From Escherichia phage Sciku: 43,130 nucleotides of DNA. The notes beneath the pieces were generated by a model that was not told where the DNA came from, searched no databases, and saw only the letters and a program-made list of their open reading frames with translations. Below are positions 3,332 to 27,350 of the stretch, piece by piece (the stretch's first letter is position 1; each line of letters opens with the position of its first letter). Both the position numbers and the translations under genes were made by a program. The DNA lies in sequence record MK931439.1; one strand, written 5' to 3'.

Positions 3332-3358
3332 AAGGCCCTGTTATGGGGCCTTAGTTTT
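3332..3358. terminator. bidirectional rho-independent terminator
   Basis: AAGGCCC-N7-GGGCCTT hairpin followed by TTTTAT, between convergent portal gene and antisense gene. Confidence 0.6.
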
Positions 3359-3878
3359 ATTTAAATCGTGCGGGTATTAGCACCATAAATGCTGAGTTTG
3401 AAAATGATATTTTGCAACCTCTGGTTTGATCCTGGAAATCGAAACGAGCAATTACATTTTTGTATGCCTTAGAAATCTTGTACGCGTCAGCTAAATACTG
3501 CATAGCGAATCCTATACTATCAACCGCACCTGGCTCGATGCGCGCCACGCGCCTCCAGTCAGGAAAGTTTCCGTCTACAACATCTACCGGAAGTGTACAT
3601 ATAAGAGAACGACTATCGTCATAGAAGGAAACACTGCCGTTGGTATGGTTCACCTCCGCGTAGTTAAATTTAGATGGTTCTCTACCTTTGATGTCTATGA
3701 GAATCCCCTTCTCAACGTTTGTCTTCACATTGTCACAGAACAATCTACGACCATCCGTAGACACTATCAATCCTTCCGGGTCTATGTAAAAAGCGTTCAA
3801 ATAGTAGCGCGCATCATTTTTAGCCCTGCAGATTTTCGCCCCTACATACGCAGGGAAAGTAATAACGGTAGTAATCAT
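3357..3878 (-). CDS. hypothetical protein (antisense moron)
   Basis: 173 aa from ATG at 3878 with AGGAGG RBS 6 nt upstream; opposite strand to all flanking structural genes; no recognisable motif. Confidence 0.55.
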   Translation of the reverse strand: MITTVITFPAYVGAKICRAKNDARYYLNAFYIDPEGLIVSTDGRRLFCDNVKTNVEKGILIDIKGREPSKFNYAEVNHTNGSVSFYDDSRSLICTLPVDVVDGNFPDWRRVARIEPGAVDSIGFAMQYLADAYKISKAYKNVIARFDFQDQTRGCKISFSNSAFMVLIPARFK

Positions 3879-10660: not shown

Positions 10661-11073
10661 TGGGCTACTTTGAAGACTTAACCAAAGCGTTCGACGTGCC
10701 GCTGGTAGCCTTCGGAAACACCAACGGCATCAAGATAGCGCTTGAGAACATCGACGCTCCGACGTCAACCGATACGCCATACCTTGCGAGTTACATGCTA
10801 CTGGCGGATACCGAGCAGGCCGACTTATTTTTCACAGAGCAACGCGCCGGTGTTTATCAGGTGGACATTAACTACGCATCGGTGAAAGGTAGCGCGCCAA
10901 TCAATAAAATGGCAGACTTACTTAACACGACATTCAAAGCAGGTAAGTCTTTTTCACGTAACGACATCTGCGCCGAAGTGCAATCGGTTAGCCTGGGGCC
11001 GCTGATTGTAGAAAATGGATGGGCTAAAAGACCATTGTCGATTAACTTTATTGCATTCACCAAGAGGCTGTGA
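10657..11073 (+). CDS. putative tail terminator / minor tail protein
   Basis: 138 aa ORF overlapping the upstream gene; positional call. Confidence 0.35.
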   Translation: MMGYFEDLTKAFDVPLVAFGNTNGIKIALENIDAPTSTDTPYLASYMLLADTEQADLFFTEQRAGVYQVDINYASVKGSAPINKMADLLNTTFKAGKSFSRNDICAEVQSVSLGPLIVENGWAKRPLSINFIAFTKRL

Positions 11074-11075
11074 AT

Positions 11076-12242
11076 ATGGCTACAACTCCTTTTAAGGGCG
11101 CGAATACCGCGCAATTCTATGTGGCGGAAACTACCCCGGGCGTGACACCGACTTCCCCGGTATGGTCGCCGTTGCGTAATACTGGCGGCGTTCCCGCGAT
11201 TACCCGCGACACTTTGACCTCCAACGAACTGGACGGCAGCCGCGAAACTACGTCAATTCGCACTGGTAACAAACAGGTTAGCGGTGAATACGCCATCGAG
11301 CTTAGCTCTAAAAGTCAGGATGACTGGCTGGCAGGTGCTTTAGGCTCTACGTGGCAATCAGGTGTATCCTTAACTGACCTGTCAATTACCGTCGCACCGG
11401 CAGGCAAGACGTTCACCCGTGCTGATGGTAGCTTTATTAACGACGGCGTTGAAGTAGGCGACCTGATTGCGTTTACCAACTTAACGGGAGATAACGCAAA
11501 ACCGTTCATCGTCACTGCGGTAGAGGCACTGGTAGTGACCGGTGCGGGCATCCAGCACACTCTCACCACAGAGACCGCTACTACTGCTGCTAAGACCGGC
11601 GACAAACTGGAAACCGGTAGCCAGTGTAAGACGTTCTCTATTCTCACATGGTACAAAGGCCAGTGCGGCGGGACTGACGCGTACACGCTTACCAAAGGTG
11701 TAGAAGTTTCTGGTTTCACTGTTGAGCAGGCCGTTAACGCGATGGTAACGGGCAGCTTCCCGTTCATCGGGCGCAGCCAGGAGATTCTCACCGAGCCGCC
11801 GTCTGGTTCTGATTTCTCCTCTGTTACGTTTGGTGATGAGCCGTTCTCCTCAGTTGACGTTTCTGTGTTCGATGGCTCTACGCCGTTGCGTTGTGATAGC
11901 TTTACCATCACCAACGACAACAGCGCGTCCGCGCAGTTCGAACTCGGCAACACTAACGTTGCGTTTGTGGAACGTAGCCGCGCGGCCAACACCTTCTCCA
12001 TCTCCGGTAAGCTGTACGACATGGTGATGATTCAGAAGTTTATCAACGAACAGCAGGTAGAGATTAACTCTATTCTGGCGGGGGTAAACGGGGCTATGTC
12101 TTTCAGTCTGAAACGTGCAGAACTCACGGCGGTTACGCCAGAGATTGGTGGTCCTGAGTCAATCACTCAGAGCATAGAAGGACAGTCCACAGGCAATCAA
12201 TATCAATCTTCTATTGTAATACAGCGCATTAGCTACGCGTAA
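11076..12242 (+). CDS. putative major tail protein
   Basis: 388 aa from ATG 11076; Thr/Ser/Gly-rich; upstream of chaperone and tape-measure genes; followed by a strong terminator. Confidence 0.5.
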   Translation: MATTPFKGANTAQFYVAETTPGVTPTSPVWSPLRNTGGVPAITRDTLTSNELDGSRETTSIRTGNKQVSGEYAIELSSKSQDDWLAGALGSTWQSGVSLTDLSITVAPAGKTFTRADGSFINDGVEVGDLIAFTNLTGDNAKPFIVTAVEALVVTGAGIQHTLTTETATTAAKTGDKLETGSQCKTFSILTWYKGQCGGTDAYTLTKGVEVSGFTVEQAVNAMVTGSFPFIGRSQEILTEPPSGSDFSSVTFGDEPFSSVDVSVFDGSTPLRCDSFTITNDNSASAQFELGNTNVAFVERSRAANTFSISGKLYDMVMIQKFINEQQVEINSILAGVNGAMSFSLKRAELTAVTPEIGGPESITQSIEGQSTGNQYQSSIVIQRISYA

Positions 12243-12271
12243 GGAAAAGGCCCCGAAAGGGGCCTTTTCCT
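12243..12271. terminator. bidirectional rho-independent terminator
   Basis: AAAAGGCCCC-GAAA-GGGGCCTTTT perfect hairpin with A-run upstream and T-run downstream. Confidence 0.7.
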
Positions 12272-12429
12272 TATTCCTTCAATTGCATTGGGTAGAAGTT
12301 AACGAGTTCTCCTTTATCCCGAAGCCGTGAATATTCATCTAACGCATCTTGCTGGCTACTCACTGCATAAATATCGTTCCACTCGTCCCATTCTTTGTCG
12401 TATACGCGGATTACATATATTGTTTTCAT
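12271..12429 (-). CDS. small hypothetical protein (moron island)
   Basis: 52 aa ORF MKTIYVIRVYDKEWDEW...; starts 8 nt after the upstream stop. Confidence 0.3.
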   Translation of the reverse strand: MKTIYVIRVYDKEWDEWNDIYAVSSQQDALDEYSRLRDKGELVNFYPMQLKE

Positions 12430-12436
12430 AATATTT

Positions 12437-12667
12437 TCACACATCAATGTTACTCCTGTACTCCCGTAACTTCTCCAGGCTTTCGATTGCCTCAGCTAAG
12501 TCTGTCCAGGTGTCCTTGTGACCACGTAAACCCATACACAATAGCTTCTTCAATGCGTGCTGTAACGCCGGGTCGCGTATGTCGAAGGCGCGTAGCACGT
12601 CGTAAACGTCTACAGTCATAGTGCTGCCGTAGGTGTTTGTCATTGTGCGGTTGTATTTATTTGTCAC
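12437..12667 (-). CDS. hypothetical protein (moron island)
   Basis: 76 aa minus-strand ORF; no motif recognised. Confidence 0.4.
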   Translation of the reverse strand: MTNKYNRTMTNTYGSTMTVDVYDVLRAFDIRDPALQHALKKLLCMGLRGHKDTWTDLAEAIESLEKLREYRSNIDV

Positions 12668-12857
12668 TGTTAACTCTCTTAAATCTGGCTATGCCTGACT
12701 CGTTAATGTTGCCTATTTCAAAGAAGCTGCGATATTTAGGCGAATACATTCTTACATCGCCATTCTCTAGGGTGACTCCTTCGTACACCGCACCTACTTC
12801 GAACCCATTTTTCTCTGCATACGGACTTACCTCGGTGCATTCATACATGTCTTTCAT
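12657..12857 (-). CDS. hypothetical protein (moron island)
   Basis: 66 aa minus-strand ORF overlapping both neighbours. Confidence 0.4.
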   Translation of the reverse strand: MKDMYECTEVSPYAEKNGFEVGAVYEGVTLENGDVRMYSPKYRSFFEIGNINESGIARFKRVNSDK

Positions 12858-13984
12858 CCCAGCATCTCCGGTGAAATAGTTAAACGTGCGACCTCGCCGT
12901 ATTCGGCGCTATAAGTAATTACATTTGCACTGCGGCCTGACATCCACCCGCCGCGGGAGGCGTAGGCATCTTTAGCCGCCAGGGTGCGGTGTTGTTCAAC
13001 AATCATGTTACGGCTTTCTACAATCTTTTGGTGGTGCAGGTGACCTACGTGGGCGTAGCTGTAAACACTCTCGCCGAACGCTTTGCGGAACTTGGCAATC
13101 ATAACCGGTTCGATAATGTCGAATCGCGCCTTATGCCCGTGATGAAAGAACAGCGTCGTTTTGCCGTGTTGCACCATCTTGTAAACATCCGGCGACGTGT
13201 CGACAATCACTCGGCTGTCGTTTGAGTATAAAGTCGCGAACATTTCCGCCAGCCATACGGACCCTACAGGATCGTGATTTCCTTGCACGATAAGCAAGCG
13301 AACGGTTTTATGTTTAACCAGCGCCATATCTACAACACGGCGGACCATACGAATCATGTAGCGGACAAGTTTCTGGTAGCGAGTGTCCGCGTCCAACACA
13401 TGACGTGACTCAGGTGTAACGGCGTCCAGACTATCGAAGTGTACGAAGTCTCCTAGCAGATTAATAACCCCTGTTCCTGCATCCGGTGCTTTCTGAAACG
13501 CCGCATCGAACCATCGAGAGAACAGGTCTTCCGCAATCTTCATATCCCAGTCGTCGCCGCTCTCGTCGGCCCATGCCAGCATACCAAGATGAAAATCAGA
13601 CACGGTGTAAAGATTGAGTAGCTTGTCGTCGCGTTTGGCTCGAGTCGCTTTAACAGGAGCAACGGGCGTAATCTCTGACTTCATGCCTTCGATCACGGCT
13701 TTCATCAATTCAACCTGACGTTCGGCATCGGTGTCGGTCTTAACCCATTGCAACTTAGTGTTGCCGAACTCATCCACAAGTGACGACGTTCCTTTAATCT
13801 TGTAGCCGTCCGGCACAAGGTGGCTAACGTCGCGCCCGTGACCTACGCCTTTCTTCGCCAGCTTCGCTTTACGGATACGGATAACGCGGTCTGAGATTCC
13901 ATACTTACGTGCGATATCAATAATTTTTGTTCCGGCGTTCAATTCTTCCCGTAACTGTTCGTCGGTTATTTTCTTATGAGCCAT
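12854..13984 (-). CDS. HTH domain - calcineurin-like metallophosphoesterase fusion protein
   Basis: N-terminal HTH-like IIDIARKYGISDRVIRIRKAK; then metallophosphoesterase signature blocks SDFHLG, GDFVHFD, GNHD, HHGH, GHLHH; GAGGAA RBS. Confidence 0.7.
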   Translation of the reverse strand: MAHKKITDEQLREELNAGTKIIDIARKYGISDRVIRIRKAKLAKKGVGHGRDVSHLVPDGYKIKGTSSLVDEFGNTKLQWVKTDTDAERQVELMKAVIEGMKSEITPVAPVKATRAKRDDKLLNLYTVSDFHLGMLAWADESGDDWDMKIAEDLFSRWFDAAFQKAPDAGTGVINLLGDFVHFDSLDAVTPESRHVLDADTRYQKLVRYMIRMVRRVVDMALVKHKTVRLLIVQGNHDPVGSVWLAEMFATLYSNDSRVIVDTSPDVYKMVQHGKTTLFFHHGHKARFDIIEPVMIAKFRKAFGESVYSYAHVGHLHHQKIVESRNMIVEQHRTLAAKDAYASRGGWMSGRSANVITYSAEYGEVARLTISPEMLG

Positions 13985-14023
13985 GCTTTACTTCCTCGTG
14001 TTTAGGATTTGTCCTATACTAGC

Positions 14024-14215
14024 TCACTTCTCTTTGACGTTCGAGTTGCACGCCCAGATTAAAATAAATACCCACGGCAGCAGAACCCAACCGAGAAACA
14101 GATTAGCCATGAATATCGCTAATTTAGCTTTATGGTTGCGCATATGCGCCACGAGAAATGGGATAAAATAAACTAAAACGATAATGATTAAGAAGAACAT
14201 AGTAATACCTGTCAT
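14024..14215 (-). CDS. small two-TM membrane protein, putative superinfection-immunity (Imm-like) protein
   Basis: 63 aa from ATG 14215 with AGGAGC RBS; two hydrophobic helices; LFLGWVLLPWVFILIWA resembles the Imm-type motif as I recall it. Confidence 0.45.
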   Translation of the reverse strand: MTGITMFFLIIIVLVYFIPFLVAHMRNHKAKLAIFMANLFLGWVLLPWVFILIWACNSNVKEK

Positions 14216-14255
14216 GGTGTAGCTCCTGTTCGAGTTAACATTGTTGGTGTAAGTG

Positions 14256-14285
14256 AATAGTATCCTATTATGTTGGGGTGCGCAA
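14256..14285 (-). promoter_or_regulatory. sigma70-like promoter with AATAG-N4-CTATT operator (type B)
   Basis: minus strand: -35 TTGCGC (14285-14280), 17-nt spacer, -10 TACTAT (14262-14257); 26-bp block here is an exact inverted copy of 37811-37836. Confidence 0.5.
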
Positions 14286-14393
14286 GTAATGTGATAGAAT
14301 AATTTTGCGCCTAGTGTCGCACACGAAAAGCGGGTGGTTCCCGTCTGGCGCATTTACCATTAACCTGTAACCTCTTAACCAAAGGATTAAAGA

Positions 14394-14810
14394 ATGAAAC
14401 TTTCTGATTTTTATTACGAAGCTGAGGCAGAAAAAGGCGCCCGTATGCCGATACCACTGAAAGACGGCACCGATTCAGGGGAGTGGCTGAACGTTGTTTC
14501 ACCGGAGGCAGACGTTGCTGTTAAAGCTATGAGGGCGTTTACACTTGCGTACCGCGCGGCATTAGGTAAATTGAAACCGCTTCGCGATAAATGCGAGGAA
14601 CTGAAAGATTTCTCGGAATACAACATCAAGATGGAAGACGCCGCAACGGACCTTAACCGCCAGTTAGCGCTTGAACTGGTTAACGGTTGGAGTCTCGACG
14701 ATGAATTTAATAAAGAGAACCTGAATACTCTTTTCTCACAATATAAACGACTCGCTGAACACGTTGTTGTTTTCCACAATGAACAGCTTCACCAATTGCA
14801 GGAAAAGTAG
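14394..14810 (+). CDS. putative tail assembly chaperone
   Basis: 138 aa acidic ORF directly upstream of the tape measure; followed by an ORF in the -1 frame. Confidence 0.5.
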   Translation: MKLSDFYYEAEAEKGARMPIPLKDGTDSGEWLNVVSPEADVAVKAMRAFTLAYRAALGKLKPLRDKCEELKDFSEYNIKMEDAATDLNRQLALELVNGWSLDDEFNKENLNTLFSQYKRLAEHVVVFHNEQLHQLQEK

Positions 14811-14815
14811 ACGCG

Positions 14816-15175
14816 TTGCTCCAGTTTGCCCGTTGGAACTTCATAACCCGCCACAAACGGCGGGAGTTTGACAGTATCGCCGACGGGCATAAAGCCGCGC
14901 TAATTGCTATGGGGGTTATGCAAGACGCGCCGGAAGCAACGCAGGACACAGGGCCGGAATGCCCCCCTGAGCTATTAACCACCTTCGAGAAGTACAGGGA
15001 AATCAAATTCACCCGCCGAGTGGACGATGATGGCATCAAGATGTACCCGCGCGAACAGTTAAGATGGTCGGATTTAGTGGCATACAGCACCGTTTCAGGC
15101 CAGAATATAGGCATGTTCGAATCTGACATCATCATGAGCTTAGACGCTATTTTCGAGGGTAGAAACGATGGCTGA
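14816..15175 (+). CDS. putative -1 frameshift extension of the tail assembly chaperone
   Basis: -1 frame relative to 14394-14810 and open from 14783; overlaps the tape-measure start. Confidence 0.35.
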   Translation: MLQFARWNFITRHKRREFDSIADGHKAALIAMGVMQDAPEATQDTGPECPPELLTTFEKYREIKFTRRVDDDGIKMYPREQLRWSDLVAYSTVSGQNIGMFESDIIMSLDAIFEGRNDG

Positions 15176-17504
15176 TGTAGCTAGTTTAGTTGTAAAAGTA
15201 TCAGAGCAAGGCGCGAAAGCTACATCAGACCGTCTTGATAACCTTTCCAAGTCTGCAAAGGTAGCCGGAGCTGCGGTAGCGGGCCTCGCTTCCATCGTCG
15301 CCGCTACCGCGTACAAGGCCGCACAGGAACTGGTAGACTCCCAACGGCAACTGGACAAGATGTCCGCCAGCCTGAAAACACTAACCGGAAGCACGCAGGG
15401 TGCAAGACAGGCGTTAAGCATCCTGCAAGACTTCGCGCGCGACACCCCGTATGGTCTTGAACAGGCGGTAGAGGGATTCCGTAAACTGGTGGCTCTCGGC
15501 CTTACACCGTCAGAAGAAGCGTTGCGCTCCTATGGCAACACTGCCGCTGCTATGGGTAAAGACCTTAATCAGATGATTGAGGCCGTTGCGGACGCCAGTA
15601 CATTTGAATTTGAGCGCCTTAAAGAATTCGGCATCAAGGCCAAGCAAAACAAAGACGATGTTGAATTTACATTCCAGGGCACCACTACGGTAGTTAAGAA
15701 GAGCGCTGCCGACATCGAGCAATACCTGCTCAACATTGGTAACGTAAACTTCGCGGGGGCTATGGCGGACCAGGCCAACACACTTAACGGCGCCATCGCC
15801 AGTGCCAGCGACTCATGGTCGCAGTTAAAAATGACACTGGCTACCAGCCTTGATGTTGGTGCTCTTGCGGAGCCTATCCGGTACATCGATGATTTAATCC
15901 AGGAACTTAACGCACAGGTAGCATCCGGCGAACTCGCTGCTGAGATGCGTATGTGGGGCGACATCGCGTCAGAAGTGGGAAGCGCGATAGAGATGTCGTT
16001 CGACGCGGCATTTGGTTTCGTAGGCGACGCAATAAACGGGCTGAATGAACTTTGGGACTTTAGTAGTAAAAGTATCACCGATAGCGGTGAACAAACGGCG
16101 ACAACCATCGCGGAATCAGCCGCCGATGCGCTCGATTTCATTGCGGAAGAATTTACCGCGATGGAGCGATTCTTTGAAGATATGGTTAAAGGGGCACAGG
16201 ACGCTGGCCGGTTGGTGAAAGCTGCCTTCACACCAGGGGAATCTGTAGACGTAGCAAAAAACATTAACTTCCAGTTAGGGATGGCACTGGATACTCAGCG
16301 CGATGTTGCGGACCTGACCCGTAAAAGTTTCCGCGAACAGGTGGAGGCTCAGCAAAATATTGTCGCGCTTAAACGCGCGGCATATGACATCGACAAAGAA
16401 GCCGCTAAGGGAGAAGGTCTTAGTAAATTTAAGGTAACTGGTACTGGTGGCGGATCCGAAGATGATAGCGCAGGTGCAAAAGCCGCTAAGAAAGCCGCAG
16501 ATGCGTTCGAGCGCCAGAAGAAAGCCGCTGAGGATTTCTACTACCAGTCGATTCATCTCAATGATGACGTATTCCAGAAAATAGAAGCCAACCAGGAACA
16601 GCAGCTAACCAAGCTACAGGAGTTTTACGGCAATCAGCTTCTTAGCGACCAGCAATACGAGAACGCTAAAACTCAGATTATGCTGGAGGCGGACACTGCA
16701 CGTCAGGAAGAACTCGCCAAGCGAGAGAAAGAACGGCAGGAAAAGAACCAGAAAGGCGAGGACTTCATGGCTCAGATTATGGGTCAGAATGCCGCAGAGC
16801 TTGAGCTTTTGGAGATTCAGGAACAACAAAAACTTGACGTTGCAGACCGATATCGCGAACAGAACCTTATTAACGAGGAGCAGTACCAGGCTGCGGTTAA
16901 TGCTATAAACGACCAGTATGCTTTGAAACGTGCCAACGCTACCGGTAACGCTTTCGGAATGATGGCGGATAACATGAAGGCCTCACTAGGGGAGGCGTCT
17001 GCCGCATACAAAGCGTTTGCCATTGCGCAGGCCACCATCGCCACATACACATCCGCCATCGAGGCTTATAAATCTGCATCGGCTATCCCTATTGTTGGAT
17101 GGGTGCTCGGGCCTGTAGCAGCAGCTACAGCGGTAGCGGCAGGTCTCGCTAACATCAGCAAGATTCGTTCGGCCCGTGAGCAGGGCGGTAACTTAGCCGC
17201 AGGTCAGTTATCTACTATCGCGGAACGTAACAAGCCAGAAGTTATTATGCCTGCAGGGGCGTCACGCGTACGTACCGCGGAACAGATGCGCCAGATTATG
17301 GGCGAGAACGGCAACAAGTCAGGCGGTGACAGCGTGACAATCGTCAACAACACCACCGGACGAGTTGATTCCGCCGTTACAGAGCGTGACGACGAAGGGC
17401 GGTTACGTGTTATCATCAGTGAAACAGTATCGGCGGCGTTACAAGACAGCAACAGTGCAATCTCCAAGTCCCGCCGGGCTACACGAAACCAGCCAGGGTA
17501 TTAA
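15168..17504 (+). CDS. tail tape measure protein
   Basis: 778 aa, Ala/Gln/Glu-rich helical sequence with a hydrophobic segment near the C-terminus; follows the chaperone pair. Confidence 0.8.
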   Translation: MADVASLVVKVSEQGAKATSDRLDNLSKSAKVAGAAVAGLASIVAATAYKAAQELVDSQRQLDKMSASLKTLTGSTQGARQALSILQDFARDTPYGLEQAVEGFRKLVALGLTPSEEALRSYGNTAAAMGKDLNQMIEAVADASTFEFERLKEFGIKAKQNKDDVEFTFQGTTTVVKKSAADIEQYLLNIGNVNFAGAMADQANTLNGAIASASDSWSQLKMTLATSLDVGALAEPIRYIDDLIQELNAQVASGELAAEMRMWGDIASEVGSAIEMSFDAAFGFVGDAINGLNELWDFSSKSITDSGEQTATTIAESAADALDFIAEEFTAMERFFEDMVKGAQDAGRLVKAAFTPGESVDVAKNINFQLGMALDTQRDVADLTRKSFREQVEAQQNIVALKRAAYDIDKEAAKGEGLSKFKVTGTGGGSEDDSAGAKAAKKAADAFERQKKAAEDFYYQSIHLNDDVFQKIEANQEQQLTKLQEFYGNQLLSDQQYENAKTQIMLEADTARQEELAKREKERQEKNQKGEDFMAQIMGQNAAELELLEIQEQQKLDVADRYREQNLINEEQYQAAVNAINDQYALKRANATGNAFGMMADNMKASLGEASAAYKAFAIAQATIATYTSAIEAYKSASAIPIVGWVLGPVAAATAVAAGLANISKIRSAREQGGNLAAGQLSTIAERNKPEVIMPAGASRVRTAEQMRQIMGENGNKSGGDSVTIVNNTTGRVDSAVTERDDEGRLRVIISETVSAALQDSNSAISKSRRATRNQPGY

Positions 17505-24750: not shown

Positions 24751-24888
24751 CTACTCTTCGGATAACTTCTCCAGTACAAACGCCAGTTGCGCATTAGCGG
24801 CGTCTCTCTGTTGCCGTAGTCGTAGAACCTCTTCTTCGAGTTCCTCGATACGTTTTTGCAATGCCGGAATTGGGGCTATGATGTTCAT
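24751..24888 (-). CDS. small coiled-coil hypothetical protein
   Basis: 45 aa ORF whose ATG overlaps the helicase stop (ATGA); heptad-like IEELEEEVLRLRQQ. Confidence 0.3.
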   Translation of the reverse strand: MNIIAPIPALQKRIEELEEEVLRLRQQRDAANAQLAFVLEKLSEE

Positions 24889-27350
24889 TTCTTACCTCGT
24901 CTCTTCATGTAATTAAGCAATTCTTCCTGTACAGATTTCTTCTCGTCGGTGCGCGCGGCAACAACCTCATCCAGCGTGTCTTTAGCGACGATGTGATAGA
25001 GGAACACCGGGCGCTCGTGTCCAGCCTGTTTCTGACGAACAGGGCCTATGCGCTCGACAACCTGCAAATAGTGCTCGAGGTTCCATCCCTGACTTATAAA
25101 CGCCAGATGATGCCCTCCATCCTGTAAATTCAAACCATGGCCGGCTGACGCGGGATGAACACATAAGATTTCGATTTCACCACGGTTCCACGCTTCCATC
25201 TGCTTATTACCCTTAGCTCCTTTGGCAAACGCCTTAGCCTGCGGGAATCGCTTAAGTATGCGCTCCAGTTCGTGTTTAAACTGATAGGCCACCAGTAACG
25301 GCGCGCCCTGCAACTCCTCAACAATGGACTCCAGTGCGTCCAGTTTCGTGTCATGCACTTTCTCCCAGTCTTTCGTTGCTTCGCCATCTGGCCCTGATAC
25401 ATACACGGCACCGGACGCAATCTGGAGACACTTTGATGTCTTCGCTGCCGCGTTAGCGGCTTCAACTTCCCCGCTCTCGAGTTCCGCAAATAACTTCTCC
25501 TCCATATCGATGTACGCCTGACGCGCTTTCTTCGGCAGGTCTATTTCAACAGGAACGATAATCGGCGCTTCGCAACCGAACCACTCTGCAGCATCGATAG
25601 TGAGACTGATATCCTTCATCTTCTGATGAATCTCGGTATCCGCGCCCGGGCGAGCGTGATACTCACGCGCCATAGCCGATTTGCCTTTCTGTATCGAATT
25701 AAACCAGCGGTCGGTAAACGCCGTATACGAAGAACCAAGTCGCTCGCCTGCGTCTATAAACCAGTTCTGCCCCCACAAGTCTTTGAGGCCGTTTGGTGAC
25801 GGCGTACCGGTCAGGTTGATAAAACGCTTAACCTTACCAAACGCCACTTTACTAAGCGCCTTTGCTCGCTTGCTGCCACCAGAACGGCTGCGGAACGATT
25901 TAAGCTTCGTGCTCTCGTCGGCAACGATAACTGTGAAAGGCCAGTCGTCTTTGCCGTAGTAGTCAATCAGCCACTCGATAACTTCGTAGTTAGTGCACAC
26001 CACGTTAGCGTCGGACTCAAGCGCCGTGATGCGGCGCTTCTCCGAACCGGTCGCATCTACTACACGCAGGCACGGGAAACCCCAACGTGCCTGTTCCGCG
26101 GGCCACGTGCCAGACGCAACACGCAACGGGGCGAGGATTAACACGCGGTCGTCGTCATTAAGTTGCCCATTACGGAACAGGCGGTTGAGAACCCACAACG
26201 TTGAGCTTGTATTGTGCGTGACAGTGAAGTCCCCCAATAAAAACCTACTGTCACCGTCGATAGTGAAGCCGAAATAATCATCTACGCCGACCGGGGTTAT
26301 GGATTCTATACCAACGTTAAGCACGTTCTTATTAATATTACGCTTCGGTAAATTCTGGTGGCGTCCTCGCACGAAAGGTACCTCAGAAAAATCGCCAGAT
26401 ACCGACACACGGAAGTAGTCACCCCAAACATCAGTGTTTGCGCAACGCTTACGAGTTTTCTTCTTGTAAGCAGCAAAACCAAGAGAACGGCATAGATAGC
26501 AAAAATCATCAGCAAGTCGCTCGCTTACCGAAATCCAGTCAAAACCCGCTTTAGACAAATCGCAGTAACCATCACTATCCAGAAGCCCCGCCAGCAATTC
26601 TAACCGCTGTCGCCGGTCGCCGCATTTGTAACTATGCGGTATATGCTTATTGTTCAGGACACCCGCCGATTTCAGCGCGTGCGTAAACCCGTGCTTCTTA
26701 TGACCTGTGTTGCCGTAAGATATACTCCATGTAAGTCCTTCTTTTCGTATTTGCATCCCATTACGTGCTGCGTACGACTCAAGATAAGCCCTTATTTCCT
26801 TTTCGTTCTCTCCTGATGTTATGGCCCCCGACGACGAAGTACCGTCACCCAGCCATAACCCCATAAGGTACGGAGGCAATAAAGCCTCGTCCTGCTCTTT
26901 CCTTGTAAAATCGACAGGTACCCGCCAACCCTTAAGATACCCATTAGGTCCGGTTACATATTTCGGCAACTTAAGCCAGTCGCGGACGCTTATGTCGAAA
27001 ACGGTATTATCTGGCCATGAACCTTTTGCAATCCCTGTAGTAGTTCGCAGGGATAATATATGGCTTTCGTTGACCGTATACGACTCTCCTTTTCGCGGTT
27101 TAACCTCGTACATCATCTCCCGGCCTCTACCGAGAGACAGTACATTTCTAGGCGTTGAATCCGGCCCCATAAGCACGTCACCGACGATGACGTCTTCTAC
27201 TTTCTTGGTCGTACCGTCAAACATAATAACTTCCGTCCCGCGTTTCAGGCACTTGCCGCTGCCCATACTAGCCCAGATATTGCAACGTGGGTGCTGTAAC
27301 ATAAACGACGTCATTATTTTCTGGTATTCCCTGCGCCTAAATTTACTCAT
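24885..27350 (-). CDS. SNF2-family helicase precursor containing an intein
   Basis: motif I ASMGSGK|T interrupted after Lys33 by a 347-aa insert; C-terminal helicase region with GHGLNLQ; mature protein predicted 474 aa. Confidence 0.8.
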   Translation of the reverse strand: MSKFRRREYQKIMTSFMLQHPRCNIWASMGSGKCLKRGTEVIMFDGTTKKVEDVIVGDVLMGPDSTPRNVLSLGRGREMMYEVKPRKGESYTVNESHILSLRTTTGIAKGSWPDNTVFDISVRDWLKLPKYVTGPNGYLKGWRVPVDFTRKEQDEALLPPYLMGLWLGDGTSSSGAITSGENEKEIRAYLESYAARNGMQIRKEGLTWSISYGNTGHKKHGFTHALKSAGVLNNKHIPHSYKCGDRRQRLELLAGLLDSDGYCDLSKAGFDWISVSERLADDFCYLCRSLGFAAYKKKTRKRCANTDVWGDYFRVSVSGDFSEVPFVRGRHQNLPKRNINKNVLNVGIESITPVGVDDYFGFTIDGDSRFLLGDFTVTHNTSSTLWVLNRLFRNGQLNDDDRVLILAPLRVASGTWPAEQARWGFPCLRVVDATGSEKRRITALESDANVVCTNYEVIEWLIDYYGKDDWPFTVIVADESTKLKSFRSRSGGSKRAKALSKVAFGKVKRFINLTGTPSPNGLKDLWGQNWFIDAGERLGSSYTAFTDRWFNSIQKGKSAMAREYHARPGADTEIHQKMKDISLTIDAAEWFGCEAPIIVPVEIDLPKKARQAYIDMEEKLFAELESGEVEAANAAAKTSKCLQIASGAVYVSGPDGEATKDWEKVHDTKLDALESIVEELQGAPLLVAYQFKHELERILKRFPQAKAFAKGAKGNKQMEAWNRGEIEILCVHPASAGHGLNLQDGGHHLAFISQGWNLEHYLQVVERIGPVRQKQAGHERPVFLYHIVAKDTLDEVVAARTDEKKSVQEELLNYMKRRGKK
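26211..27251 (-). mobile_element. intein with LAGLIDADG homing-endonuclease domain
   Basis: begins with Cys (TGC at 27251-27249), ends His-Asn (26216-26211) before Thr +1; two LAGLIDADG motifs YLMGLWLGDGT and LLAGLLDSDGY; in frame, 1041 nt. Confidence 0.8.

Follow-up and report, generated by a model that had tools for sequence, protein, structure and literature searches.

A conserved antisense operon with an Imm-family gene and an HTH-metallophosphoesterase in the tail region of Kagunaviruses and other Guernseyvirinae

Layout and control signals of the operon

Five minus-strand genes that run against the structural genes of a phage tail module raise the question whether they are a moron island, as a preliminary description of this DNA had proposed, or a standing part of the genome, and what their products do. 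The window, meaning the whole stretch of 43,130 nt that was analysed, represents a Kagunavirus (Guernseyvirinae) and shows 99.8% identity to Escherichia phage Shashou, whose GenBank record already annotates these five genes plus a two-way terminator. ORF coordinates and the Shashou annotation agree in placing them, as described before, between the tail tube gene (11070-12242, + strand; PF18906, 4.5e-39) and two tail assembly chaperone genes (14394-15175, + strand; PF08748 and PF23812). The genes had also been described as antisense to all surrounding structural genes, which holds for the flanking late genes, but a second antisense gene is located in the late region at 3357-3878. Successive minus-strand ORFs, from the metallophosphoesterase (MPE) gene over p66 and p76 to p58, overlap by 4–11 nt according to their coordinates and thereby point to an operon, and all five genes are predicted to be translationally coupled. 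In comparison with relatives all of them, including the three small proteins p66, p76 and p58, are under purifying selection, with pN/pS values of 0.26 (Imm), 0.12 (MPE), 0.04 (p66), 0.10 (p76) and 0.39 (p58). A 30-aa CDS annotated in Shashou at 14268-14360 was rejected as a sixth gene because it overlaps with the conserved promoter and an RNA element.

The proposed promoter of the operon itself was recovered in silico at 14257..14285 on the minus strand, with the sigma-70-like hexamers TTGCGC (−35, 14285-14280) and TACTAT (−10, 14262-14257) separated by a 17-nt spacer. Its match to the consensus is moderate (3/6 and 4/6 positions, respectively). Across Kagunavirus, Jerseyvirus and two more clades the spacer varies in sequence, but its length of 17 nt and the two hexamers are conserved. 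A generic promoter/terminator scan called neither this conserved promoter, which was missed because its −35 hexamer matches only three of six positions, nor the terminator; conservation and folding served to establish both. The same scan proposed a second candidate promoter that overlaps the first one (14295-14267, minus strand; ATCACA-17-CATAAT). At the opposite end the postulated bidirectional intrinsic terminator could also be confirmed in silico. It is located at 12239..12274 between the convergent tail tube and p58 genes, and its perfect 16-bp hairpin (UAAGGAAAAGGCCCC gaaa GGGGCCUUUUCCUUA) is stable on each strand, with a dG of −29.6 kcal/mol on the plus and −28.6 kcal/mol on the minus strand (z −6.5 and −5.1) and none of 200 shuffles folding as well. 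Shashou carries it as an annotation on both strands, and it is kept at the 3' edge of the island in relatives with a different cargo. Sequence and conservation suggest that host RNA polymerase would start at the sigma-70-type promoter in a divergent control region of 178 nt, and that minus-strand transcription would stop at the bidirectional hairpin, which would also end the upstream late transcript.

The 178-nt control region also includes an int-alpA-like structured RNA (14304..14368, + strand), which lies within the leader of the chaperone/tape-measure operon and is a neighbour of the minus-strand operon, not a part of it. It matches the covariance model RF02996 with 32.5 bits (E 2.7e-5), just under the gathering score of 35.8. 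Across 14 distinct sequences 95.4% of the cells are paired and 4 pairs show compensatory changes; the covariation score of 0.276 was reached by 0/500 shuffles, and slid controls were without compensatory changes and did not exceed a covariation score of 0.074. The three-helix int-alpA structure is supported by covariation.

The metallophosphoesterase and its exchangeable neighbours

The second gene (12854..13984, minus strand) encodes a protein of 376 aa with an HTH (residues 8-44), a β-hairpin plus helix (61-102) and a binuclear MPE core (119-376). The HTH-metallophosphoesterase fusion recognised earlier was verified by an AF2 model (pLDDT 93.6) and by the metal-binding motifs D130-x-H132, G178-D-x-x-H182, G235-N-H-D238, H281-H-G-H284 and G314-H-L-H-H318, which correspond to the five motifs DxH, GDxx[DH], GNH[DE], H and GHxH of the binuclear MPE superfamily. 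In 140 diverse homologues D130, H132, G178, D179, N236, H237, H282, G314 and H317 are invariant, and H182, G235, D238, G283 and H315 are at least 90% conserved. The protein stays below the Pfam gathering cut-offs (22.2 vs 27; 19.5 vs 21.5), and as a sequence search against the PDB gave only marginal matches (SbcD, Mre11 and MPE-nuclease), the structure was needed for its assignment. In the structure comparison the model is nearest to the nucleases PolD-DP1, SbcD and Mre11 and not to lambda phosphatase, and because of its active-site motifs and fold we place the protein next to DP1, SbcD and Mre11. Motif II of Mre11 and SbcD reads GDxxH, and the nuclease-type core encoded here possesses the same motif II histidine. 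The label of a lambda-type Ser/Thr protein phosphatase used in Shashou is disfavoured, as the protein is closest to this type neither in structure nor in motifs (GDxVDRG, GNHE). Across records it is variously named phosphatase, DNA polymerase II small subunit, proof-reading exonuclease or DNA repair exonuclease; the evidence supports a probably nuclease-like MPE with an HTH over the lambda-phosphatase label.

Homologues of the MPE are found in 2,038 phage records, those of T1 (gp16) and Tls among them, and the family comprises 4,585 representatives of 50% clusters. In T1-like, Dhillonvirus-like, Webervirus and other phages the MPE gene has a core-like status. The orthologues of T1 (gp16), Tls and podovirus J8-65, the latter beside an exonuclease and endonuclease VII, are located in replication/recombination modules, and in the window the gene is co-oriented with the replication module of the phage. 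We found no biochemically characterised member of the HTH-MPE family in the literature. Fold and motifs suggest that this binuclear Mn/Fe-type MPE with its N-terminal, DNA-binding HTH most likely cuts or trims DNA in phage DNA metabolism, with replication or recombination intermediates or host DNA as candidate substrates.

The stretch 3' of the MPE gene appears to serve as a cargo slot, which is occupied here by p66, p76 and p58. The acidic 66-aa ORFan p66 (12657..12857, minus strand; pI 5.0), the start of which overlaps the MPE stop (ATGA), is found in 25 phage records, all of them Kagunavirus, with at least 92% identity, and the last gene of the operon encodes a second acidic ORFan of 58 aa (p58; 12271..12447, minus strand; pI 4.5) present in 22 phage records, only from Kagunavirus, with 51–98% identity. 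Neither of them gave a match in Pfam, PHROG, NCBIfam or PADLOC. Between them, p76 (12437..12667, minus strand; 76 aa) represents a protein family that is common among phages, with 777 phage records from many genera; it folds into a β-hairpin plus three helices and has the invariant residues K4, Y5, D20-V-Y22, P33-A34, Q36-H37, K40-K41, R48-G49, K51 and D56. For the five island proteins PADLOC returned no match and NCBIfam nothing meaningful, and a search for a host origin of the small genes left 12271-12860 unmatched in 5,426 complete E. coli genomes. A DUF3310-like domain in p76, suggested by one GenBank label, was rejected with no Pfam match in 18 family members, no PDB sequence match and no structural neighbour, and small ORFs after the MPE gene in J8-65 and in a Dinoroseobacter phage were rejected as p76 homologues by hhalign.

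Among 43 loci of relatives the cargo differs. Instead of p66, p76 and p58, a split polynucleotide kinase/phosphatase (PNK), HNH endonucleases, a Rha/antirepressor-like protein or a small membrane protein are encoded, with HAD_PNKP, HNH_3 and Rha/ANT as the alternatives recognised by Pfam. In 15 of the 43 loci a HAD_PNKP phosphatase (8.5e-19) and a P-loop kinase follow directly 3' of the MPE gene. PNK and p76 are alternatives in one slot, as none of the 43 loci has both (Fisher p 1e-5, uncorrected for relatedness), and the window contains no PNK, neither HAD_PNKP phosphatase nor P-loop kinase. The idea that p76 is a remnant of the P-loop kinase of relatives was discarded, as the two gave no alignment.

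The promoter-proximal position, slot 1 (14024..14215, minus strand), is occupied by an Imm-family superinfection-immunity protein of 63 aa, which starts at an ATG with an AGGAG RBS; an extension to 109 aa (up to 14353) would overlap the promoter. As the preliminary description had it, the first gene encodes an Imm-like membrane protein: PF14373 is matched with 50.0 bits, above the gathering cut-off of 27.9 (E 2.7e-13), phrog_1039 with 1.1e-26, and two hydrophobic helices are located at about residues 4-24 and 33-55 (hydropathy windows 1-27 and 31-58; GRAVY 1.27; pI 9.9). As a two-helix inner-membrane protein of the T4 Imm family it most likely blocks the entry of a superinfecting genome at the membrane, with the caveat that family membership alone is no proof of exclusion in this host. 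In a time course of a related Kagunavirus, expression of the Imm gene was highest together with that of DNA polymerase and methylase and not with that of the structural genes, although the data are coarse and the authors assigned it to the ‘late’ class (PMC12645636).

In 11 of the 43 relatives a 108-aa signal-peptide protein (phrog_14165) replaces Imm in slot 1. On the other side of the control region the tail assembly chaperone and tape measure genes (14394..17504, + strand) form a block whose alleles segregate together with those of the slot-1 gene. Within Kagunavirus the pairings of slot 1 with the allele of TAC1 are near one-to-one (13/13, 9/9 and 7/8, counting only loci with a called slot-1 ORF), with L014 as an exception and L062 as a second, probable one (tblastn), and between slot 1 and the cargo beyond the MPE gene there is free assortment. 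Two Imm alleles differ almost solely in the first helix. It is conceivable, albeit rather doubtful, that the slot-1 exclusion gene and the adjacent chaperone/tape-measure genes are matched allele cassettes, in which each tape-measure type would be combined with its cognate blocker, being one of two Imm TM1 variants or the periplasmic signal-peptide protein. A virulent siphophage might then exclude phages with its own type of injection machinery, and the pair would be driven from the compact divergent control region with the int-alpA-like RNA.

Conservation of the locus and alternative explanations

If the locus were a moron, in the sense of Juhala and Hendrix an added unit that is transcribed independently (PMC3594210), it should be present in some relatives and absent in others. 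This expectation did not hold: the MPE gene is located antisense between tail tube and chaperone genes in all 43 sampled Guernseyvirinae loci from several genera, and the 4.5-kb island region has matches in 452 phage records. Promoter and terminator also occur at the junction in each of the 43 relatives. The on/off pattern applies only to p66, p58 and the slot-1 alternatives. Comparison of base composition gave a split result. GC content, GC3 and codon usage of the MPE gene are typical for the genome, and p76 also has a native composition (GC of 0.508 and 0.489, with 0.50 for the genome and a mean of 0.516, sd 0.023, for long genes), but the GC of Imm (0.39), p66 (0.42) and p58 (0.38) is lower, these being short genes with noisy values. 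With the MPE gene in 43/43 relatives and its native composition, the complete island cannot be called an add-on; what stands of the moron reading is the self-contained, opposed transcription unit, the Imm gene and the moron-like character of p66 and p58, which appear to be true accessory genes of this kind because of their low GC and their restriction to Kagunavirus. Conservation in all relatives, as far as the backbone is concerned, is thus found, but a role in virion assembly is without support. Judged from sequence comparison, the island is not a recent insertion but a standing, already annotated feature of Guernseyvirinae, and only the promoter-proximal slot, p66 and p58 behave as exchangeable elements.

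We regard it as likely that the locus is a conserved, non-structural operon transcribed by host RNA polymerase, which combines superinfection exclusion at DNA entry with a DNA-processing nuclease. That the whole five-gene cassette was acquired recently and horizontally as one unit with dispensable exclusion, takeover or anti-defence functions is highly improbable. Its own promoter and terminator, the orientation against the late genes, the Imm-family gene, the low GC of Imm, p66 and p58 and the variable cargo would all fit to such an origin, but the backbone in every sampled relative, the 452 matching records and the native composition of MPE and p76 contradict it for the unit as a whole. Moreover, the MPE gene is core-like in other phages and p76 is distributed far beyond Kagunavirus, and the five genes do not travel together, as can be seen from the 25 and 22 records of p66 and p58.

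The MPE might also be part of an anti-defence cassette and degrade immune signalling nucleotides (the messengers of CBASS, Pycsar, Thoeris or type III CRISPR) or act on some other small molecule or on a phosphoprotein, with the acidic p66 and p58 as inhibitors of host defence proteins. This is unlikely, as an N-terminal HTH and a GDxxH motif would rather be expected of an enzyme acting on DNA, DNA nucleases are the top structural neighbours, the gene resides among replication/recombination genes in other phages and the small proteins have no PADLOC or other family match. Kagunaviruses are highly sensitive to restriction-modification systems and variably to Old, and this sensitivity gives no sign of a broad anti-defence capacity (PMC11990801). 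A very unlikely explanation is an end-healing module, in which MPE and polynucleotide kinase/phosphatase together mend RNA or DNA after cleavage by host nucleases and of which the window would contain a reduced version. The PNK pair right after the MPE gene in 15 of 43 relatives and the PNK two genes after the MPE gene of podovirus J8-65 argue for it, and MPE domains are described as end-healing phosphoesterases of bacterial Pnkp (PMC2190708). Against it, PNK is missing from the window, p76 is not similar to the kinase, and PNK and p76 replace each other in the slot. The two PNK genes form a mobile unit of their own, which is located 35 kb from the MPE gene in T1 and not near most other MPE loci; since PNK lies beside the MPE gene only in some Kagunaviruses and J8-65-like phages, an obligatory partnership of both was rejected.

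Significance and comparison with known systems

A GenBank genome that is almost identical already has the genes and terminators annotated, and hundreds of Jersey- and K1G-like phages have the same layout. For the very large MPE family, which is inconsistently annotated across records, we favour the label of a nuclease-like HTH-MPE. Kagunaviruses are in use for phage therapy and synthetic biology. For their engineering, the segment 3' of the MPE gene would be a natural cargo slot in a fixed backbone of promoter, MPE and terminator, and through the linkage between exclusion gene and tape measure the specificity of exclusion in virulent siphophages becomes accessible to inexpensive tests.

The closest counterparts of the MPE are T1 gp16, Tls GJGTLS_66 and PHROG 704 (‘DNA repair exonuclease’), which are orthologous HTH-MPEs of equal length and domain order (44% identity to the Tls and 51% to the J8-65 orthologue), but the T1 and Tls genes are part of a replication/recombination module and lie on the strand of their neighbours. 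To Mre11/SbcD and archaeal PolD DP1 the identity is only 12–17%, and unlike these the phage protein has no capping domain, no OB fold and no DP2 partner. The C-terminal helices with which Mre11/SbcD bind Rad50/SbcC are also absent, as the model ends with the core at residue 376, and no Rad50/SbcC or SMC-type ATPase partner is annotated in the 99.8%-identical genome; the N-terminal HTH and β-hairpin modules, in contrast, are unique to the phage family. Gp48 of mycobacteriophage A10ZJ24 is another phage MPE with all five motifs and phosphodiesterase activity. Its expression is early, it disrupts the DNA of the host, and some hosts cannot be infected normally without it (PMC12287305). Compared by its description, it belongs to a different MPE clade, with motif I at residue 10 and no HTH module.

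With respect to exclusion, the slot-1 gene resembles cor of T1, an exclusion gene antisense at the end of the tail block beside an annotated terminator, but Cor is an outer-membrane, FhuA-directed protein of another family, encoded by a single gene at another position. With T4 Imm it has in common PF14373, the small size, the two membrane helices and the origin from a virulent phage, and a BLASTp similarity to T4 Imm was noted by the annotators of Shashou; the 63-aa protein shares only the 42-residue domain, and exclusion in Guernseyvirinae is a prediction only. The archetypal moron, gene 15 of HK97, encodes an inner-membrane exclusion protein between chaperone and tape-measure genes with an effect that depends on the phage tail region: gp15 blocks genome entry, and the tail region of the incoming phage sets the specificity (PMC3594210). 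Slot 1 is similar in being a small membrane-protein gene with its own expression signals at the equivalent position of the tail operon and in the slot-1 allele tracking that of TAC/TMP. HK97 gp15, however, belongs to the YebO and not to the Imm family and is the product of a single-gene element expressed from the prophage of a temperate phage, whereas the slot-1 gene opens an operon of five genes, runs antisense to the tail genes and is carried by a virulent phage.

Conservation of the antisense operon among relatives

In a megablast search the region 11000-15500 matched 452 phage records, with Escherichia phage Shashou (Kagunavirus, Guernseyvirinae) as top match showing 99.8% identity over the entire query at the same coordinates. 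The structural genes occupy 13 to 24720 on the plus strand, followed on the minus strand by a replication module (24.7-37.6 kb) encoding helicases, a VRR-NUC endonuclease, DNA polymerase I, SSB and a RecB-like exonuclease, while small early genes and lysis genes are again on the plus strand. The annotation of the helicase gene (24885-27266, minus strand) includes a homing-endonuclease intein.

The tail tube gene (PF18906) is separated from two tail assembly chaperone (TAC) genes (PF08748, PF23812) by five minus-strand genes: those for the Imm-like protein (14024-14215, 63 aa), the HTH-metallophosphoesterase MPE (12854-13984, 376 aa) and the small proteins p66 (12657-12857, 66 aa), p76 (12437-12667, 76 aa) and p58 (12271-12447, 58 aa). 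Neighbouring genes overlap at their stop and start codons, as would be expected of a single operon. The preliminary description of five genes running opposite to the tail genes is borne out by the ORF calls and by pN/pS values of 0.26 (Imm), 0.12 (MPE), 0.04 (p66), 0.10 (p76) and 0.39 (p58), which indicate purifying selection on all five and thus that the small ORFs are genes and not chance frames.

To these genes the same description had assigned the character of a moron island, which holds only for parts of the locus. We retrieved 72 IMG/VR loci surrounding homologues of MPE, mapped the window proteins onto them and counted the 43 loci containing both flanking markers. MPE was never absent from the junction, being antisense between chaperone and tail tube in 43/43 loci, and the chaperone-tail tube interval ranged from 1.8 to 2.9 kb. 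Clustering of the ORFs revealed three slots, a pattern also seen in GenBank relatives. In the promoter-proximal slot 1 the Imm-like protein is replaced in 11 loci by a 108-aa signal-peptide protein (phrog_14165) and in others by a protein distantly related to it, and slot 2 always holds MPE. The variable slot 3, located 3' of MPE, is filled by p76 in about 20 loci and by a HAD_PNKP phosphatase together with a P-loop kinase (PNK) in 15. Also found there are HNH endonucleases, a 77-aa membrane protein, a Rha/KilAC protein, p66 and p58 (4 loci each) and reverse-strand homing-endonuclease-like ORFs. Composition divides the genes in the same manner, as MPE (GC 0.508, GC3 0.56, self-CAI 0.79) and p76 are genome-typical, whereas Imm, p66 and p58 have a GC of 0.38-0.42, values that are noisy for such short genes. 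Furthermore, p66 and p58 occur in 25 and 22 phage records, respectively, all from Kagunavirus, and p76 in 777 records from many genera. From the presence of MPE in all loci, the composition and the record counts we conclude that the backbone is ancestral and that moron-like behaviour is confined to slot 1 and some of slot 3 (p66, p58). As a whole the locus is a non-structural operon that is conserved but has exchangeable ends; it combines a known exclusion family, a widespread nuclease-like MPE clade, the widespread p76 family and two ORFans. Public records already carry its annotation; worth pursuing are the linkage between slot-1 and TAC alleles and a structured RNA element, both described below.

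The metallophosphoesterase and its genomic context

Metallophos family HMMs matched MPE only below threshold, and PDB sequence searches returned only marginal matches to SbcD, Mre11 and MPE nucleases. All five binuclear-metal motifs are conserved in an alignment of 140 MPE sequences, and in the confident AlphaFold model (pLDDT 93.6) the MPE sandwich is preceded by a tri-helical HTH and then a beta-hairpin with a helix, both in agreement with the HTH-metallophosphoesterase fusion proposed before. As MPE has no capping domain and no Rad50/SbcC is encoded in the genome, the protein is nuclease-like, yet outside the Mre11/SbcD family. Its own family comprises 2,038 phage records and 4,585 representatives at 50% identity, nearly all of 370-420 aa. 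Action of a phage MPE on DNA has a precedent in a mycobacteriophage MPE from a different clade, which is active as a phosphodiesterase, disrupts the integrity of host DNA and is host-toxic (PMC12287305).

In other phages MPE orthologues are found amid replication and recombination genes, as in Tls and an N4-like phage, after an exonuclease and endonuclease VII in podovirus J8-65, and between dam and the lysis genes in T1 (gp16). A second antisense, low-GC, non-structural gene of the Sciku late module (3357-3878, minus strand), with the portal on one side and head-morphogenesis genes on the other, is a DNA polymerase III sliding clamp according to the Shashou annotation. Together with the orthologue contexts this points to DNA-metabolism genes being scattered antisense through the late region of Guernseyvirinae.

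The HAD-type polynucleotide phosphatase and the P-loop kinase-like protein form a mobile pair, present in T1 and in slot 3 of Kagunavirus. The phosphatase is located at 7128-7613 of L029, the P-loop protein at 7616-8170 of L025, and L006 (6294-6821) is a further locus listed with the pair; the T1 copy (L081 4948-6534, gp64-gp62) is split by an HNH gene. J8-65 has the HAD phosphatase after its MPE but gave no match to the P-loop protein. Phage XY1 (locus L004, 2994-4727) has, next to a 384-aa MPE, an additional calcineurin-like ORF of 187 aa, and the window MPE DNA matches this stretch in parts only, a sign that the gene may have been partly duplicated or rearranged.

The divergent control region

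The tail tube and p58 genes converge on a 28-nt gap that is filled by a perfect 16-bp hairpin. With a dG of -29.6 kcal/mol on one strand and -28.6 kcal/mol on the other (equally stable shuffles 0/200), the hairpin confirms the bidirectional terminator described previously. Because the upstream late transcript meets this terminator, the chaperone/tape-measure operon needs its own promoter.

For the antisense operon a promoter of its own had also been predicted (14285-14257, minus strand, TTGCGC-17-TACTAT). It matches the consensus only moderately and is absent from the calls of a generic promoter scan. An intergenic alignment of 36 relatives showed that, despite a differing spacer sequence, both hexamers and the 17-nt spacing are kept in Kagunavirus, Jerseyvirus and two clades at greater distance, and on this basis we accept the predicted promoter as real. 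On the plus strand a promoter-like site (TTAACA-17-TAGTAT, 14235-14263) overlaps the -10 of the island promoter (14257-14285, minus strand). The two thus make up a compact divergent promoter pair, possibly a mutually exclusive one, and may compete with each other.

The conserved spacer also contains a match to the int-alpA RNA family RF02996 (14304-14368, plus strand), whose 32.5 bits are just below the gathering score of 35.8. Its three helices are backed by four compensatory pairs, with slid controls showing no compensatory change, and it is kept in Kagunavirus, Jerseyvirus and two further clades. This int-alpA-like RNA would belong to the leader of the chaperone/tape-measure operon. The 30-aa CDS CPT_Shashou_025 (14268-14360, minus strand) annotated in Shashou is unlikely to be a gene, as it overlaps both the conserved promoter and the RNA element.

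Slot-1 alleles and known exclusion proteins

Imm matches PF14373 above threshold, has two hydrophobic helices and a good RBS, and can thus be retained as the Imm-like membrane protein it was taken for. In the sampled loci slot-1 and chaperone alleles pair almost one-to-one across the nearly invariant spacer of about 150 nt: Imm type S0 occurs with TAC type 1 (13/13 loci), the signal-peptide protein with TAC type 2 (9/9) and Imm type S2 with TAC type 0 (7/8), while PNK and p76 are about equally frequent with each slot-1 type. The two Imm types differ almost exclusively in the first helix. An exclusion function matched to the tape measure could explain this linkage, a hypothesis we consider rather unlikely; proximity alone can produce it as well, since the homologous tract from slot 1 to TAC is about seven times shorter than MPE. 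In Jerseyvirus, moreover, a third Imm type is paired with a TAC and tape measure protein about 90% identical to those of the window. The phrog_14165 signal-peptide proteins replacing Imm (108-114 aa; loci L020, 1163-1489, and L075, 5166-5510) always accompany a different chaperone/tape-measure type and are candidate periplasmic exclusion factors.

In the only expression time course found, that of the Kagunavirus K1B4, the Imm gene shares a class with the genes for DNA polymerase and methylase, apart from most structural genes; sampling was coarse and covered several infection rounds (PMC12645636). Examples of other exclusion or defence proteins that act via the tape measure protein are SNIPE (PMC13190303) and, as described in a work cited in PMC3952083 (Bebeacua 2013), Ltp. 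By position Imm comes closest to HK97 gene 15, which was the earliest moron to be described and is located between the genes for chaperone and tape measure; it codes for an inner-membrane protein that causes exclusion in a manner dependent on the incoming phage's tail (PMC3594210).
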